Assembly (NCBI GenBank): GCA_020630615.1
Contig: JAHDBA010000003.1
Location: 10,027-74,026, forward strand
DNA: 64,000 bases
Source: Myxococcota bacterium
Lineage (GTDB): Bacteria > Myxococcota > UBA727 > JAHDBA01
Reading direction: 5' to 3'
Positions within the stretch are counted from its first letter, which is position 1; every line of letters starts with the position of its first letter. A model generated the notes under the pieces. The model was not told the origin of the DNA, searched no databases, and saw only the letters and a program-made list of their open reading frames with translations. Made by a program: the position numbers and the translations under genes. Below, one piece after another: positions 2,609-27,775 of the stretch.

Positions 2609-3409
2609 ATGAGGCTAACGCAAGATAGAATCTTAAGTCACAAGAAAAGCGCCGATGCGAACTTTAAGTTCCCCATGTGCCCTTCATGGTTTCAAGGCCG
2701 AGGCGCTTTCGGGGGGCTTTTGATGGCACAGGCAATTCGTGCGCTCAATAGCTGTGATGGTTTAGAAAGCAAAGGAATGATTCTGTCGTCGCTCAGCGGT
2801 TCTTTTATGCAATCGCATCAAGGCGAGAGTGTTGAGATTGAGATTCAACCTTTGCGTCTCGGTCGAGGTACACATTTTATTCAGGCGCGACTCTACGACG
2901 CTGATTCCATTGTGGCTGATTTCACGCTGACTCTGAGCCGACCACGACAAACAAGCGTCGCTTCGAGTTCGCCCACCATGCCCGAAGCCGAACCCTTTGA
3001 AAAATGCCTTGAAGCCCCCGCGGGTCTTGTTCCCGCCTTTGTTCAGCATTTCGACATGCGAATGTGTCCATCATTAATTCGGCCCAAGGACTCTCTGTGT
3101 ACAATGTGGGTTGAGCCCAAGAGTCCTACAAAGAGCCCCTACGAGAACATTGCTCTGTCCATAGATGCGTTGCCCCCAACAGTGTTTCTTCACGCCGGCC
3201 CGCATTTTAAAGGCGGTACCGTTCACATCAGCCTTCATTTTTGGGAGGCATCATCCAAAGTCAAAGAGGAAGGGGCCTTTCTCGTACAAAGTCGCGGCGG
3301 CACTCGAGCCGAGGGGTGGCTCGAAGAACACCAAGACTTGTGGTCGGCATCGGGTGAACACCTTGCTTCAAGTACCCAACAAATCGCTTTTTTTACGCCG
3401 TCGCCTTAA
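2609..3409 (+). CDS. Acyl-CoA thioesterase II-like protein (hotdog fold)
   Basis: The N-terminal GRGAFGGLLMAQAIRA motif resembles the TesB-type thioesterase motif GG.VFGGQ.LAQAL. An AGGAG ribosome-binding site lies 5-6 nt upstream of the ATG. Confidence 0.45.
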   Translation: MRLTQDRILSHKKSADANFKFPMCPSWFQGRGAFGGLLMAQAIRALNSCDGLESKGMILSSLSGSFMQSHQGESVEIEIQPLRLGRGTHFIQARLYDADSIVADFTLTLSRPRQTSVASSSPTMPEAEPFEKCLEAPAGLVPAFVQHFDMRMCPSLIRPKDSLCTMWVEPKSPTKSPYENIALSIDALPPTVFLHAGPHFKGGTVHISLHFWEASSKVKEEGAFLVQSRGGTRAEGWLEEHQDLWSASGEHLASSTQQIAFFTPSP

Positions 3410-5350
3410 AAAGACAGGCAACGCAAAGAGCGTATAGGTCGAAGGACCAAGGCTCCCGCTCGTCTCAGAACTTGAGCAGCTCTGCGTTAAGAGTCCACCG
3501 CCCGAAAGAGAAAGTGCGCCACTCGTATCGCTTGTATTGCTCTCATCTGAAACATTGACAGGATCGGTCGGCCCTTGTGGGTTACTTGCAGGGTCTTGCC
3601 CGTCTTGGTCAAAGGTTGGATCAGCAGGGACTCCTGAGTTATCAGTGGACGTGTTGTCCGATGATGTGGGATCTGCGGGTTCTGAATCTGCGGGCTCAAG
3701 TTGACTGGTTCGCGGTGTACATACAGCCCCAACGACTACAGAAGGGTTGACTGTGCCCATGAAACGTTCGCATGTCTGCCTTGTATCTGGACATGTCCAA
3801 GAGTGGTCACAGCGCGCATAGCAGCGCGAGATAGCGACAGACTCTTGAATGCACGCTAAACCGACATCACACCCAAAGACGCCGGTACATGTGTCTCCCT
3901 CTTGACCCGGGCCGCCCGGATAGCAGAATGAAGAGTCTTCACAGTATCCATTATTATCGCATCCATCAAAACAAGCACTCGTATTGCTCTGCGTACAACT
4001 GTCATTATTAAAGTAGATGCAGCTCTCAAAAGCAGAACAGCCCACGCCGCTTTGTGGGTTACATGCAGCTCTGCATGTTCCAGAGCTCGCACCGTTAACT
4101 TCCGGAATACAGGTCGCCCCTTCAACACAGCGAAACTCTGAGTCACAGTATTCACCCGGCGCTTGCTCCCCATTCGGGTTGATACAAACTCCGAACACAC
4201 TGGCTTCCTGGCCAATGTCAACGCATTCAAAACTCGCAGGGCATGTGTTACTCCCATTTGGATTACAGCGCTCATAACAAAGTGCACTAGACTCATCTCC
4301 CAGACACACTGCGTCGTTTTCACACTCATAATAGGGAGGCACACAGGCTTCTCCGACTGAGGGAACTATCGTTCCTAAAAACACACATTCTCCACTTCCT
4401 GCTTCGTCACATTCAAATCCGTCGGCACAATCGCTATCGCTTGAGCATAACGAAGTGCAATAGCGAAGCCCATCCGAGAAGCCGCATATCAAAGGCGATG
4501 GACAGTCGCCGTTCGACGAACACGCACTACCTGCACCCGAACCGGATCCAGGATAAATCGCTTCGATACCTGCAATGTCTGAGATGCGTAGCTCCTCTGG
4601 GTCCCCTCGACCACCCGAGGCAGCCATGACAGACCAGTTCTTACAACTGTCGTCCGGGCACGGGTGCCCCAAACCGACCAAGTGTCCCATTTCATGGAGG
4701 AGCACTGCCTTGGCACTCGTGCACCTGTCCTGGAAGCGGTCACAGTCATCTCGATCTGCCGACCATGGAAGTTGCACCGCACCAGGAACTGCATTCATCA
4801 CGATATCGGCATCGGTGATGTCTCGACTGCACAAGTCAATACTTGAAAGTGTCACGCCCAATGCCCCCAGACCACCTGCACCGAGGAGGCTTATATATTC
4901 AGACTGAGAGTTGATCCATAGAAGGACGTTTTGGCCGTCTTGCAGCCCAGGGTCCCGAGAGCCGCTGCCTAAATTCTGTACCGATAAGTTACTGCCAGGC
5001 ACACTCGACCATTGATTCGTCACATTGTTGACAATAGTGCTCCACTCCGCGCTACTCACCTCGCTGGGTCTTTGACTGCTTTCAAATCGCACACCGACAA
5101 CAGGGTTAACCCAGCGTGTGGCATTTGACGTCGTGCATGAACCACATCCGTCATTGGAGATAGAACCGGTCGCATCAACGCTATTGCAAAGCGACCGATA
5201 ACACGCGCTTGAAGGGAAGATCGTGCCCGACGAACACATATTTGGCGATTGCGCACGGAGCTCGCTGGCCAGAAAAAGTGCCGCTCCCATCGAGATTGCA
5301 CACAGCCACGATTGAACGAACAATCGCTCTGTATTGAAAAGACAAATCAT
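3368..5350 (-). CDS. Secreted metzincin (matrixin-like) zinc metalloprotease with Cys-rich repeat modules and a C-terminal sorting-like tail
   Basis: N-terminal signal peptide. The HEMGHLVGLGH zinc-binding motif is followed by an SVM Met-turn. At least four roughly 45-aa Cys-rich repeats follow (C..C..C..C pattern, Myxococcus cysteine-rich-repeat-like). A Ser/Thr/Pro/Asp-rich linker leads to a hydrophobic helix plus RRRRKK at the extreme C-terminus. Confidence 0.75.
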   Translation of the reverse strand: MICLFNTERLFVQSWLCAISMGAALFLASELRAQSPNMCSSGTIFPSSACYRSLCNSVDATGSISNDGCGSCTTSNATRWVNPVVGVRFESSQRPSEVSSAEWSTIVNNVTNQWSSVPGSNLSVQNLGSGSRDPGLQDGQNVLLWINSQSEYISLLGAGGLGALGVTLSSIDLCSRDITDADIVMNAVPGAVQLPWSADRDDCDRFQDRCTSAKAVLLHEMGHLVGLGHPCPDDSCKNWSVMAASGGRGDPEELRISDIAGIEAIYPGSGSGAGSACSSNGDCPSPLICGFSDGLRYCTSLCSSDSDCADGFECDEAGSGECVFLGTIVPSVGEACVPPYYECENDAVCLGDESSALCYERCNPNGSNTCPASFECVDIGQEASVFGVCINPNGEQAPGEYCDSEFRCVEGATCIPEVNGASSGTCRAACNPQSGVGCSAFESCIYFNNDSCTQSNTSACFDGCDNNGYCEDSSFCYPGGPGQEGDTCTGVFGCDVGLACIQESVAISRCYARCDHSWTCPDTRQTCERFMGTVNPSVVVGAVCTPRTSQLEPADSEPADPTSSDNTSTDNSGVPADPTFDQDGQDPASNPQGPTDPVNVSDESNTSDTSGALSLSGGGLLTQSCSSSETSGSLGPSTYTLFALPVFLRRRRKKSDLLGT

Positions 5351-14233: not shown

Positions 14234-14282
14234 CTAAAGCTTTCATAAAAGCTCTAATAACAAGCGCAGCAATCCGTGTTCC

Positions 14283-14312
14283 GGGCCCACATCGAATGGG
14301 CCTTCTGTATTG
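14283..14312 (+). terminator. Putative rho-independent terminator after the sigma-region-4 gene
   Basis: A hairpin GGGCCCA-catcgaa-TGGGCC is followed by the T-rich run TTCTGTATT. Confidence 0.35.
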
Positions 14313-14470
14313 GAGACGCAATCAAAAGACGTCTTTGCGTTGCTCCTTACAAGCCTCGCAAGGCATACGGACATCACCTTTGGTTGTCACCTCTAAAAAC
14401 ACACAATTAAAAGAGTGGATCGAGCTCTTTTACCTTGAGGCTTTCAATGGATCTGGTAAACTTTGCGTGG

Positions 14471-16141: not shown

Positions 16142-16195
16142 TACGCTCCAACCCGAGTGTGTCCCAATCTGTCAATAAAGACCAAAGGCTTAAAA

Positions 16196-17641
16196 ATGAA
16201 AGAGAACGCGAACATCTACATTGAAACCTTTGGTTGTCAGATGAACATCCTCGATACAGAGCTGGCCCAGGACGACCTGTCTCAGCGCGGCTATTCCTTT
16301 GTTGAGGATCCGAAGAAGGCTGATGTTGTGCTCTACAATACGTGCTCTGTCCGCGACCTTTCGGAGCAAAAAGTCCTGAGTCGCCTCGGCATTCAAAGTC
16401 AGCGAAAGAAATCGGGAAGTGATGTTATTGTCGGGGTGCTCGGGTGTATGGCTGAGCGGAAAGGCGAAGCTCTGCAAAAAGAGTTTCCCGTCGACATCCT
16501 AATTGGCCCGTCTGAACTTGATAGACTCGGAGACCTCATTGAGGCACAGCTGTCTGCACGCTCTTCGACGCAAAAAACAACTCCAGAAAGTGCGCTCTCC
16601 AATTTCAAGAATCGAAAGTTGAAGGTTGACCCTGCCCGTCCTGCAGAGCTCGACGCCTTTGACCGTGGTCGTATTATTGACGAATCAAAAACGGGTGCGC
16701 AGGCCTATGTTCGCATCACGCGTGGGTGTAACAAGTTTTGCGCCTTCTGTGTTGTGCCTTACACCCGTGGTGAAGAAGTCCATCGACACCCGAGTGATAT
16801 TGTTTCTGAGGTGCAAAAGTTGACCGATGCCGGTGCGAAAGAAGTCACCTTGTTGGGGCAAACGATCAACCATTACCGCTACGAAGATACTGGCTTTGCT
16901 GAACTTTTGAGGCGGGTTCATGATGAATGCCCAGAGCTCCCTCGGCTGCGCTATCTCACGAGTTACCCGCGAGACTTCACCGAAGACATGCTTGATGCGA
17001 TGGCTGAATGTGAGCGTGTTGCCCCCTTTTTGCACATCCCGGCACAAAGCGGTTCCAACCGTATTCTAAAAAAGATGAATCGTGGGTACACCCGTGAGTC
17101 CTATCTAGAGCTTGTTCGAATGGCCCGGGAGAAAATGCCAAACCTAACAATCGTAGGTGATATGATCGTGGGCTTTCCCTCGGAGACCGATGCAGAATTT
17201 GAAGAAAGCCTTACGCTCCTACAGGAAGTTCAGTACAAAACTGTGTATGTCTTTAAATACTCCCCACGCCCGGGCACGGTTTCTGGCAAGCGTGATGAAG
17301 ACGACATCCCAATTGCTGTGAAAAAATCCCGAAACAATCGAATGCTTGACCTTCAAAAAGGTATCACTTTGGTCCAGCATCAAGCATTGGTGGGTCAAAC
17401 CCACAAACTACTCGTCGAAAGTGTTGCGAAGAACCAAGGCCTGGAGCCCAACCCTACCTCCAACCTGGTCACGATTGGCTCCAAAAATACTGAAAGACGC
17501 GATACGCTCCTCCAACTCACGGGAAGAACCGTAGGCGATCATATTGTTCACTTTAAAGGTGAGCGCTCACTTATTGGTCAGATTGTCAATGTGCGTGTCG
17601 AGGAAGCACGCGGCCTGAGTTGCTCAGGGACCCGAATCTAG
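16196..17641 (+). CDS. miaB: tRNA-i6A37 methylthiotransferase (radical SAM, MiaB family)
   Basis: An MTTase N-terminal domain, the radical SAM motif CNKFCAFC, and a C-terminal TRAM domain. The ATG at 16196 is preferred over the GTG at 16157. Confidence 0.85.
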   Translation: MKENANIYIETFGCQMNILDTELAQDDLSQRGYSFVEDPKKADVVLYNTCSVRDLSEQKVLSRLGIQSQRKKSGSDVIVGVLGCMAERKGEALQKEFPVDILIGPSELDRLGDLIEAQLSARSSTQKTTPESALSNFKNRKLKVDPARPAELDAFDRGRIIDESKTGAQAYVRITRGCNKFCAFCVVPYTRGEEVHRHPSDIVSEVQKLTDAGAKEVTLLGQTINHYRYEDTGFAELLRRVHDECPELPRLRYLTSYPRDFTEDMLDAMAECERVAPFLHIPAQSGSNRILKKMNRGYTRESYLELVRMAREKMPNLTIVGDMIVGFPSETDAEFEESLTLLQEVQYKTVYVFKYSPRPGTVSGKRDEDDIPIAVKKSRNNRMLDLQKGITLVQHQALVGQTHKLLVESVAKNQGLEPNPTSNLVTIGSKNTERRDTLLQLTGRTVGDHIVHFKGERSLIGQIVNVRVEEARGLSCSGTRI

Positions 17642-25256: not shown

Positions 25257-26390
25257 ATGGGCATCTTTTCGAAACTACGTATCCTTCTTCCCCTTCTTTT
25301 AACGGCTCCTGTGATCGGCGGGCAAGCGGTTATTGAGGGCGTCATGATGCGTTCCCCAAATAGTTTAGCGATAGCGGTCCGAAGAAAAGACGGGCGTATT
25401 GTCATCCGTGAAGATCACTGGCTCTCATTCTCCGAGCGCTTACCATTCCTAAAATGGCCGATCTTGCGTGGGGCAACGATGCTGGTCGAAAGTATGTTTA
25501 ATGGGGTTCAGGCGTTAAACTTCTCTGCCTCGCAAGCAATGGAAGACGAAGAGAACCCGGACGAACCCAGTTCAAACACAACAGGGCATGGCACTGTGGG
25601 GACGTCTCCTGAAGATGATAAAAAGGGAAACTGGGCCCTTGGTGCAACGGTGGCTTTTTCTTTGGCTTTGTCATTTCTTATTTTTAAGGGTGTTCCTCAT
25701 CTTGCTACCATGTTCTTCGGGTTTAACCCTGCAAGCGGTAGTTTTCATTTGGTTGATGGCGCTATCAAACTTGCTTTTTTTGTCGGATATATCGTGCTGA
25801 TCTCAAGAATGGATGAGGTTAAACGTCTTTTTATGTATCATGGCGCTGAACATAAGTCAGTCCATACCTATGAAGGGAAAGAAGACCTTGTGGTCAAAAC
25901 GACTCTTCCGCAAAGCACTGCACACCCTCGCTGCGGCACAACACTGATTCTACTGGTCATCACGGTGAGCGTTTTTGTTTTTGCACTTTTCATTCCTTTT
26001 GTCCCGGTTGTGAGTTCAAATTCATGGCTACAAGGACTCTTCGCGCTCTTCGTGAAAATCCCCCTCATGTTTCCGGTAGCCGGTGTCGCGTATGAAGTCC
26101 AACGCTTCGCGGCCAAGAATCCCGATGCGTCTTGGGTCAACTTAATTGTGAGGCCAGGCATGTTAATGCAACGACTCACCACACGTGAGCCGGACCCAAA
26201 ACAAATTGAAGTTGCTCTTGCAGCTTTACGCCAGACCTTATGGCGAGAAATAGAAGTTCAAGACCCAAATAGAGGCGCTTCGAACCCCGCATTTGAGAAG
26301 GAACTTATGCGTGAGTACGCAAGCTTTGAGGACTTCGAGTTGTCCAACAACGTTCACTCCAGCATGTTGAACACAACCCCATCAATGTAG
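25257..26390 (+). CDS. DUF1385 (YqhQ-like) membrane protein
   Basis: The signature GGQAVIEGVMMR and multiple transmembrane helices. The position adjacent to rpmE matches other genomes. Confidence 0.75.
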   Translation: MGIFSKLRILLPLLLTAPVIGGQAVIEGVMMRSPNSLAIAVRRKDGRIVIREDHWLSFSERLPFLKWPILRGATMLVESMFNGVQALNFSASQAMEDEENPDEPSSNTTGHGTVGTSPEDDKKGNWALGATVAFSLALSFLIFKGVPHLATMFFGFNPASGSFHLVDGAIKLAFFVGYIVLISRMDEVKRLFMYHGAEHKSVHTYEGKEDLVVKTTLPQSTAHPRCGTTLILLVITVSVFVFALFIPFVPVVSSNSWLQGLFALFVKIPLMFPVAGVAYEVQRFAAKNPDASWVNLIVRPGMLMQRLTTREPDPKQIEVALAALRQTLWREIEVQDPNRGASNPAFEKELMREYASFEDFELSNNVHSSMLNTTPSM

Positions 26391-26502
26391 AGCGTTGGTT
26401 GACAGCTTTGACATAGTTTTAGAGTAAATCAAAGCGCGGGCACCCTCGACACAAAATCTCTTTTGGGGGGTCAAAAGATTGAACCATCGATAAACAAAAA
26501 AA

Positions 26503-26522
26503 GACGGGGCCATTGCCCCATC
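26503..26522 (-). terminator. Rho-independent terminator for the small Cys-rich lipoprotein gene
   Basis: On the minus strand a hairpin GGGGC-AATG-GCCCC is followed by TCTTTTTTTG. Confidence 0.45.
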
Positions 26523-26551
26523 TCCCTAACTTTATCTACACTATGCTTGGC

Positions 26552-26707
26552 CTATTTTTTTGCGTTACAGTCGCACTTATCACAGTTACCTTCGGCTTCA
26601 CATGTATCACCGCATTCACATGTTTTTGGCTTATCGTCACCGCCACACGCCAGTGTTGCTTGTGCACCACCCAACATAATCCCGCACGCAATAACAAAAC
26701 TTTTCAT
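26552..26707 (-). CDS. Small (51 aa) Cys-rich lipoprotein, not listed in the ORF track because it is under 60 aa
   Basis: Translation: MKSFVIACGIMLGGAQATLACGGDDKPKTCECGDTCEAEGNCDKCDCNAKK. A lipobox TLAC is present. A GAGGTG ribosome-binding site lies 5 nt upstream of the ATG. A GC hairpin plus T-run terminator lies about 30 nt downstream. Confidence 0.5.
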   Translation of the reverse strand: MKSFVIACGIMLGGAQATLACGGDDKPKTCECGDTCEAEGNCDKCDCNAKK

Positions 26708-26922
26708 TTTTCACCTCTTCTAAAACTATAGCCAGTCATTCAGAATATTGCCAACATCAATGATCTTTTTAGCGACGAAAATACCTCTCTCAGCAACTAC
26801 TCCCTTCAAAACTTTTCATTTTTCGCAATCTTGCGCAAAAATCACCCGAGAAAGATTTTTGGCGCATAATGATAAGCTAAACTGTTGACCAAGAACGCGA
26901 TTTCCTTTAACGTCCTTGTGGC

Positions 26923-27012
26923 GGAGACGTGGCAGAGCGGTTGAATGCATCGGTCTTGAAAACCGAAGTACCTTCACGGGTACCCAGGGTTCGAATCCCT
27001 GCGTCTCCTCCA
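26923..27012 (+). tRNA. tRNA-Ser (anticodon TGA)
   Basis: Acceptor stem GGAGACG pairs with CGTCTCC. The D-arm is GGCAGAGCGGTTGAATGC, the anticodon loop ctTGAaa gives TGA, there is a long variable arm, the T-arm is CAGGGTTCGAATCCCTG, and the molecule ends in CCA. A TTGACC-17-TAACGT promoter-like element lies upstream. Confidence 0.85.
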
Positions 27013-27076
27013 TTTAAGCTTATGAGTTCAGCCCGAGATTCGAACTTTTGAGTTAACCTTTAGAAAGGTGCTTTCG

Positions 27077-27775
27077 ATGAGTTTAGATATCGCTACTCCC
27101 GTAAAGTTTACGCTAATGTCGCTTCTGGTGTTCTCAGGATGTCAGGGCTGTGAACCACCCTCCGATGATGTCGAAAGTTATTGCGCACTTCTCGATGAAT
27201 GTGTCAATGGTCCTTCGACCGAAGAAGAGAATCTAGAGACCTCAGAGACAGGTGGTGCTTTAAACGTTGTTGAAAATGCTTGTGTTCAAGAGATGGATGA
27301 CAAACTGCAACTCTTAAGAGACAATGACGATTGTTTAGACATACGTCAATCTCTACTGACTCTGATCTCATGTGGCTCGAGTCGCGGTCGATGTCTCCGC
27401 GATGATGATGAGAAGGTTGCAGTCTTCGTTGGGCAACCCGTTGATGTCGACTTCCCGGTCGCCGAGTGCAACTCGGAACTTGTTCGCTATATTGAAGCGA
27501 TTTTCAGCGCTCCAGAAAATTGCCGAGACTTGGTTCTCGTTGAAGAGCTCGATGAAATGGCTACAGAGATTCCTGTGCATCCGAACTGGCAGTGTACGGA
27601 TTCATTTTATGCAGACGGAGCTCGCTGCGATTGCGGTTGTGGCGTCCAGGACCCCGATTGTGACAACACTACACCGTCAAGCTGCGACGTATTGCACTGC
27701 CCTGAGGGGCAGATTCTCGATTCCCAGTTTGCAGATATCTGTGTAGATGAAGCCGAGACTCCCCCACCCACATAA
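27077..27775 (+). CDS. Cys-rich, highly acidic lipoprotein
   Basis: A lipobox VFSGC and 20 cysteines. The C-terminal segment CDCGCGVQDPDCD resembles the myxo-type Cys repeat of the protease at 3368..5350. The ATG at 27077 has an AAAGGTG ribosome-binding site. Confidence 0.5.
   Translation: MSLDIATPVKFTLMSLLVFSGCQGCEPPSDDVESYCALLDECVNGPSTEEENLETSETGGALNVVENACVQEMDDKLQLLRDNDDCLDIRQSLLTLISCGSSRGRCLRDDDEKVAVFVGQPVDVDFPVAECNSELVRYIEAIFSAPENCRDLVLVEELDEMATEIPVHPNWQCTDSFYADGARCDCGCGVQDPDCDNTTPSSCDVLHCPEGQILDSQFADICVDEAETPPPT

Follow-up and report, generated by a model that had tools for sequence, protein, structure and literature searches.

Does the short, Cys-rich open reading frame on the minus strand at positions 26552 to 26707 of a stretch of Myxococcota DNA (GenBank assembly GCA_020630615.1, contig JAHDBA010000003.1) encode a protein and, if it does, where would the product reside and what would its cysteines do there? 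We refer to the whole 64,000-nucleotide stretch that was analysed as the window. The first part of the question has a firm answer, since we are confident that 26552..26707(-) is a real protein-coding gene. The later parts call for graded answers. The best explanation of the locus includes a monocistronic, lineage-restricted and separately signalled small gene, and we give this explanation as a whole about an even chance of being right.

An earlier note made from the letters alone had proposed a minus-strand frame of 51 codons at this place, and a minus-strand reading of 26350..26900, together with a list of open reading frames of at least 30 amino acids, returns that frame with an identical translation. 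Its absence from the track of open reading frames is explained by the 60-amino-acid cutoff of that track, as the frame shows up only below this threshold. The gene is unlisted in this sense only: the identical 51-amino-acid protein, nameless, is already in a public collection from an NCBI source. The features that define the gene and its transcript are as follows.

26552..26707, minus strand: coding sequence of 51 codons plus TAG, product MKSFVIACGIMLGGAQATLACGGDDKPKTCECGDTCEAEGNCDKCDCNAKK
26717..26711, minus strand: Shine-Dalgarno motif GAGGTGA, a 7-nt match to the anti-Shine-Dalgarno complement that ends 3 nt before the ATG
26749..26754, minus strand: promoter-like -35 hexamer TTGGCA, a consensus match
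26725..26730, minus strand: promoter-like -10 hexamer TATAGT, a consensus match
26496..26527, minus strand: intrinsic terminator with a 13-bp stem (AGGGAGATGGGGC/GCCCCGTCTTTTT), the loop AATG and a run of seven T

Codon usage sets the frame among genes. A codon log-likelihood, trained on 49 long non-overlapping open reading frames of the window and setting the coding frame against the other five, assigns it +0.18 bit per codon, compared with 0.194 +/- 0.099 for real genes cut into 51-codon pieces and -0.091 +/- 0.104 for a spurious set of 266 open reading frames of 40-70 amino acids that lie in wrong frames inside genes. The score is typical of window genes and is reached by just 0.8% of the 266 spurious frames. 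The Shine-Dalgarno match is likewise rare, a 7-nt match being found for 5 of the 751 window open reading frames of at least 30 amino acids. The earlier note had seen GAGGTG 5 nt upstream of the start; the motif is present, at 26717..26712, with a spacer to the ATG of 4 nt. The last three bases of the longer motif, TGA at 26713..26711, form an in-frame stop two codons upstream of the ATG, and because this stop excludes upstream starts, the ATG at 26707 is the only possible one. (The same GAGGTGA stands upstream of a 44-amino-acid, GTG-start frame beside a tRNA-Leu gene, at 14243..14377 on the minus strand; its product is not protein-like, and we judged that frame spurious.) A lipobox and a Cys-rich tail occur together in none of the 12,093 small open reading frames found in 1.8 Mb of fetched loci from other organisms. 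Since the codon score, the 7-nt Shine-Dalgarno match, the signal peptide and the Cys-rich tail are roughly independent of one another, their coincidence on one frame is very unlikely to have arisen by chance. The proposal of a genuine small gene with its own signals is thus backed by the frame itself, the Shine-Dalgarno motif, the terminator and the codon usage, and the presence of the same protein in the NCBI-derived set counts as an independent prediction in its favour.

The hairpin GGGGC-AATG-GCCCC with seven T that had been noticed before is present as the core of the longer stem. The stem runs from 26527 to 26498 and the T run from 26502 to 26496, the stem starting 24 nt and the core 32 nt after the stop codon. 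With a folding energy of -25.8 kcal/mol (z = -4.38), matched by 0 of 200 shuffled sequences, the terminator is a strong one. As the plus strand has no T run after the hairpin, the terminator is oriented for a minus-strand transcript. The convergent DUF1385 gene at 25257..26390(+) lacks a plus-strand terminator-like site of its own (26390-26530), and the only hairpin downstream of it is that of the small gene, lacking a plus-strand T run, so that the two convergent transcripts may meet there. At the upstream end, the two hexamers form the site TTGGCA-18-TATAGT at 26754..26725(-), which agrees with the consensus at 10 of 12 positions. Judging by the usual distance of 6-8 nt, transcription would start near 26718 and leave a leader of about 11 nt. 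Expression from this promoter of its own would then yield a transcript of about 220 nt that has the Shine-Dalgarno motif in a short leader and ends at an intrinsic terminator.

The N-terminal half of the product points to export, and it is very probable that a Sec-type signal peptide directs the protein out of the cytoplasm. Two features, both read from the sequence, matter here.

26648..26707, minus strand: signal peptide, residues 1-20, with the n-region MK, the h-region SFVIACGIMLGG and the c-region AQATLA
26645..26647, minus strand: codon TGT of Cys21, by the lipobox rule the putative lipidated +1 Cys of T-L-A-C

The n-region is positively charged and the h-region hydrophobic and uncharged, K2 being followed by SFVIACGIMLGGAQA without any D, E, R or K. 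A permissive lipobox rule of the PROSITE PS51257 type, [LIVMFWSTAG](2)-[LIVMFYSTAGCQ]-[AGS]-C with the Cys at position 15-35, accepts A-T-L-A-C with its Cys at 21; only 7 of the 751 window open reading frames of at least 30 amino acids pass it. Leucine at -2 is seen in 7 of 56 lipoproteins that the rule predicts in the window and the fetched loci, including SLAC and SLGC, and LLAC also occurs. Segments of Gly, Asp, Lys and Pro right after the cysteine are typical of lipoprotein tethers, and the CGGDDKPK stretch looks like such a tether. Lipidation is favoured because of this tether-like stretch and because it leaves an even number (six) of free cysteines, and a lipid anchor at Cys21 is, in our judgement, the better prediction. 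The setting would permit it: TamB-family and BamB proteins are encoded in the window and therefore indicate a diderm envelope, and the BamB homologue itself passes the lipoprotein rule with a canonical LTGC lipobox, which indicates that the lipoprotein pathway is in use. Lgt, LspA and Lnt would probably process the precursor at Cys21, yielding a 31-amino-acid lipopeptide tethered to a membrane of the diderm envelope by an N-acyl-diacylglyceryl cysteine, with GGDDKPK as a flexible linker.

What such a peptide would do depends on the cysteines. The earlier note had counted eight in a 31-residue mature peptide. Eight is the count for the 51-residue precursor; the 31-residue part from Cys21 has seven, and six would be free after lipidation. 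C8 lies in the signal peptide, C21 in the lipobox, and the free ones are C30, C32, C36, C42, C45 and C47, which make up the core.

26567..26620, minus strand: Cys6 core, residues 30-47, C-E-C-GDT-C-EAEGN-C-DK-C-D-C, that is CxCx3Cx5Cx2CxC (spacings 1, 3, 5, 2, 1)

The 30 residues after Cys21 include, beside the six Cys, 5 Asp, 3 Glu, 5 Lys and 4 Gly. The 31-residue part as a whole has no aromatic residue, no His and no large hydrophobic residue, and its net charge is about -3. In an acidic segment without a hydrophobic core only the cysteines can give structure. Single-sequence AlphaFold draws short beta-strands through residues 18-44 at low confidence (predicted local distance difference test, pLDDT, of 55). 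In the oxidising envelope the six cysteines would form three disulfides, made by the envelope oxidation machinery. Perhaps they build a ladder across a hairpin that turns at EAEGN, with the pairs C30-C47, C32-C45 and C36-C42, as the near-symmetric CxC...CxxCxC arrangement would allow. The outcome would be a small, rigid knob of negative charge at the surface of the membrane. We lean slightly towards three disulfides rather than metal.

The protein is a strict orphan in every collection searched. In a word-indexed search of 5.8 billion clusters, the 51-amino-acid protein matched itself alone. An exhaustive phmmer search of 1.84 billion representatives added two long repeat proteins, which we rejected as relatives because they match, repeatedly, only the signal-peptide/lipobox stretch GAQATLACGGDD (through GAQPTSACGSSD repeats). 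Back-translated scans of metagenomes and viral contigs and a tblastn search of plasmids gave no relative, and tblastn against the window and the loci fetched by then gave neither paralogue nor relative. PDB sequences gave no match, and Pfam and NCBIfam no family, at E up to 10. The DUF1385 neighbour, used as a synteny bait, led to 160 loci at a best identity of 43-47%: for its protein, identity does not exceed 43% across 185,579 species-representative genomes and 47% across metagenomes, and its top genome matches are Syntrophaceae, Myxococcota and Bacteriovoracales assemblies. The intergenic DNA around the small gene has no match in the 160 fetched loci and is unique in the window. As no genome is close enough, the intergenic region does not lend itself to a comparison of conservation or of non-synonymous and synonymous substitution (dN/dS), and the source lineage appears to be poorly sampled.

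Several points weigh against the picture of a separately transcribed gene for a disulfide-bonded lipopeptide. The promoter-like site occurs at background frequency (2 in the region, with 1.7 expected by chance), and a leader of only 11 nt would be short. With no homologue in any collection searched and no closely related genome in the genome and metagenome scans, conservation lends the gene no support. The lipobox fails the strict form [LVI][ASTVI][GAS]C, having T at -3 and L at -2, and a signal peptidase I site between AQA and T, after residue 17 and thus three residues upstream, competes with it. The structure model is unreliable at its pLDDT, and the disulfide pattern is conjecture. Moreover, in a wholly polar sequence CxC motifs agree with a metal-thiolate cluster and with disulfides about equally well.

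The alternative that survives best concerns the anchor. It is possible that the product is not a lipoprotein and that signal peptidase I cuts after AQA, releasing a soluble periplasmic or secreted peptide of 34 amino acids that begins TLACGG and holds seven cysteines. Right behind the h-region, A-Q-A forms a textbook -3/-1 site, and the failure of the strict lipobox is compounded by the finding that TLAC itself occurs in none of the 56 rule-predicted lipoproteins of the window and the fetched loci. However, the permissive rule is passed, kindred boxes with L at -2 occur among those same predictions, the CGGDDKPK segment resembles a lipoprotein tether, and cleavage between AQA and T would leave an odd number of cysteines. 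We therefore regard the soluble peptide as the less likely product, though one to be taken seriously. The lipobox that had been proposed survives as a non-canonical one, with cleavage between TLA and C that the permissive rule allows and the strict form does not, and the lipid anchor as plausible.

A second alternative concerns what the cysteines hold. The product could be a lipid-anchored or periplasmic metallothionein-like peptide whose six thiolates, with the nearby Asp and Glu, would hold a Zn2Cys6 or Cu(I)-thiolate cluster, acting as an envelope metal buffer or scavenger; we consider this doubtful. The composition is suggestive, with 6 Cys in 30 residues (about 20%), two CxC and one CxxC, neither aromatic residues nor His, many Lys, Asp and Gly, and a small overall size, much as in the metallothioneins SmtA/BmtA, MymT and wheat Ec-1. 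Ec-1 (sequence verified against PDB chains 2l61, 2mfp and 2kak) also has the CxCGxxC element and the spacing run 1-3-5. However, the spacing coincidence has p of about 0.013 for a comparator picked post hoc from many possible ones, and BLASTP against Ec-1, as a single comparison, gives E = 0.14. The metallothionein-like pattern that the earlier note described accordingly holds as regards the Cys-rich CxC/CxxC arrangement and the lack of F, W, Y and H, whereas the resemblance to Ec-1 is not significant. The search with metallothionein profiles that it had suggested found no metallothionein or other family in Pfam or NCBIfam, nor was any sequence matched in PDB, at the limit given above. Free thiols, in addition, tend toward oxidation in an oxidising periplasm, and no metal sensor, efflux or resistance gene, nor any other metal-responsive context, was found within about 10 kb. 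PMC7558416 counts SmtA and MymT among the copper-binding proteins of the cytosol, whereas the peptide considered here carries an export signal. On the other side, PMC5572434 reports E. coli that was surface-engineered with a cyanobacterial metallothionein and used for cadmium adsorption, a precedent by which an envelope location need not preclude metal binding. In its most specific form, that of a natural lipid-anchored metallothionein-like peptide with a Cys6 metal-thiolate site (of Zn2Cys6 type or a Cu(I) cluster) on a diderm membrane, encoded by a lineage-specific gene beside a tRNA gene, the proposal seems to us improbable. If it were true, the peptide would be a natural counterpart of the engineered surface-displayed metallothioneins; for an exported, membrane-tethered metallothionein-like peptide we found no description in the literature searched. 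We rank disulfides above metal because the peptide is predicted to reach an oxidising compartment and because neither homology nor context points to metal. The redox role that the earlier note had named as another option likewise finds no backing in homology or context.

It is also conceivable that the minus-strand transcript is a small non-coding RNA, or that there is nothing there, and that the frame is a chance feature. The orphan status of the protein means that there is no conservation evidence of translation, and a unit of about 220 nt with promoter and terminator is also the anatomy of a small RNA. Yet the codon score, the 7-nt Shine-Dalgarno match, the signal peptide and the Cys-rich tail coincide on the frame, each of them rare at about 1% or below among window open reading frames, and no Rfam family matches at a meaningful score: a covariance scan of 26300..27100 passes only tRNA-Ser, and the best other match in the region of the frame has 17 bits, compared with a gathering score of 58.7. 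A non-coding locus is thus very unlikely.

Even less can be said for a precursor of a ribosomally synthesized and post-translationally modified peptide (RiPP), with an N-terminal leader and a Cys-rich core that is, for example, thioether-bridged. The small size and the contrast between a distinct N-terminal half and a Cys-rich C-terminal half would suit such a precursor, but no modifying enzyme, protease or transporter lies nearby, no NCBIfam precursor family of the SCIFF/ranthipeptide or lanthipeptide type is matched, and the N-terminus is a typical Sec signal peptide, not a leader. Within 10 kb there is a single radical SAM protein (16157..17641), which by its UPF0004 and Radical_SAM domains we take to be a methylthiotransferase of the MiaB/RimO type. 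We hold this origin to be highly improbable.

Two frames run antisense to the gene.

26463..26723, plus strand: open reading frame of 86 amino acids, judged spurious
26513..26731, plus strand: open reading frame of 72 amino acids, judged spurious

Although they are the longer frames, the chance that either is the expressed gene is negligible, as the earlier note had supposed in calling them spurious: their codon scores are negative or near zero (-0.081 and -0.007 bit per codon, respectively), both begin with TTG and have no Shine-Dalgarno motif, one starts within the hairpin loop of the terminator, Pfam matches neither of them, and their products are low-complexity sequences that mirror the minus-strand codons.

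To which known systems, then, may a small gene for an exported Cys-rich peptide be likened? In its build it is comparable to the stand-alone lipoprotein genes for Lpp, the entericidins EcnA/B and OsmB, each of which has about 40-80 codons and its own promoter and terminator, and encodes a signal peptide and lipobox; the proteins of those genes, however, are Cys-poor except for the lipidated Cys and share no sequence similarity with the product discussed here. In its Cys packing it seems closest in idea to OmcA of Chlamydia, a very small Cys-packed lipoprotein precursor that has about 14 Cys and is held in the envelope by disulfide cross-links. Both would be tiny lipoprotein precursors with a short Cys-packed mature part, and OmcA may serve as a functional analogy for a disulfide-locked envelope lipopeptide. 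However, there is no Pfam match at E up to 10 (the OmcA family being Chlam_OMP3), the mature part is about half the size with six Cys rather than about 14, and no OmcB-like partner was seen. At the level of pattern, the two CxC motifs flanking a short turn would allow cross-strand disulfides as in protegrin, tachyplesin and theta-defensin. Those cystine-ladder peptides, in contrast, are cationic eukaryotic antimicrobials without a lipid anchor, whereas this is an anionic bacterial peptide with asymmetric spacing (3 versus 2). The small-gene protein is not a member of any of the families compared, as all sequence-based tests of membership failed. A Cys6 all-polar tail on a small exported or lipoprotein peptide that is a strict orphan is unprecedented.

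The DNA around the start of the gene holds a repeat.

26807..26824 and 26695..26712, minus strand: exact 18-nt direct repeat GAAAAATGAAAAGTTTTG, copies 112 nt apart

Only 0.02 exact repeats of this length are expected by chance. The downstream copy takes in the start codon of the small gene and its codons 1-4, the upstream copy opens a nine-codon frame (MKSFEGSSC*) without a Shine-Dalgarno motif, and in the 94 nt that separate the copies lie the promoter-like site and the Shine-Dalgarno motif of the gene. We rejected a decayed tandem duplication, since there is no similarity beyond the 18 nt. The two copies may be the scar of a rearrangement or may serve as a pair of binding sites; that they have to do with the gene is uncertain. 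At 26413-26423 and 26719-26729 there is a perfect inverted repeat of 11 nt (ATAGTTTTAGA/TCTAAAACTAT), with one arm over the -10 box and the predicted transcription start and the other 23 nt past the DUF1385 stop codon; it is AT-rich and probably due to chance. So, probably, is a 13-nt inverted repeat, 92% complementary, that pairs 26635-26647 (the codons for Cys21-Gly-Gly-Asp) with 26917-26929 at the 5' edge of the tRNA-Ser gene.

The small gene lies in a 532-bp gap in which it converges on the DUF1385 gene and diverges from tRNA-Ser(TGA) at 26923..27012(+). The neighbours are housekeeping genes: those for a PAS histidine kinase, trigger factor, a methyltransferase with a Methyltransf_4 domain, the radical SAM protein mentioned above, the TamB-family protein and the BamB homologue, together with rpmE, pth, the L25 gene, prs, coaBC and mreB. 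Within about 10 kb there are no genes for metal handling, thiol-disulfide exchange (Dsb) or peptide maturation of the RiPP kind. Just past the tRNA-Ser gene, 27068..27775(+) encodes a protein of 235 amino acids with 18 Cys, the start of which has a lipobox-like VFSGC and the C-terminal part of which has the motif CDCGCGVQDPDCD. Neither Pfam nor NCBIfam has a match for it, and among the 5.8 billion clusters it matches itself alone, annotated with 232 amino acids. By its sequence it appears to be another orphan envelope protein rich in Cys, next to the first one, and lipoprotein-like; as it is itself an orphan without a family match, we dropped it as a clue to function. Farther away, 3368..5350(-) encodes a protein of 660 amino acids with 49 Cys and weak, sub-threshold metzincin matches (Matrixin at E = 1e-4, Reprolysin_5 and archaemetzincin), which may be a secreted Cys-rich metalloprotease.

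The weight of the finding is at present modest, as it concerns a single nameless orphan from a poorly sampled lineage, with no pointer to function from conservation, context or expression. If the protein is made, it would be an unusually small exported bacterial protein with a fold that depends wholly on its cysteines. As such it would offer a compact test case of how a bacterial envelope handles dense arrays of cysteines, be it by oxidation or by metal loading. The small gene also shows that intrinsic signals alone can lend support to orphan genes of fewer than 60 codons.

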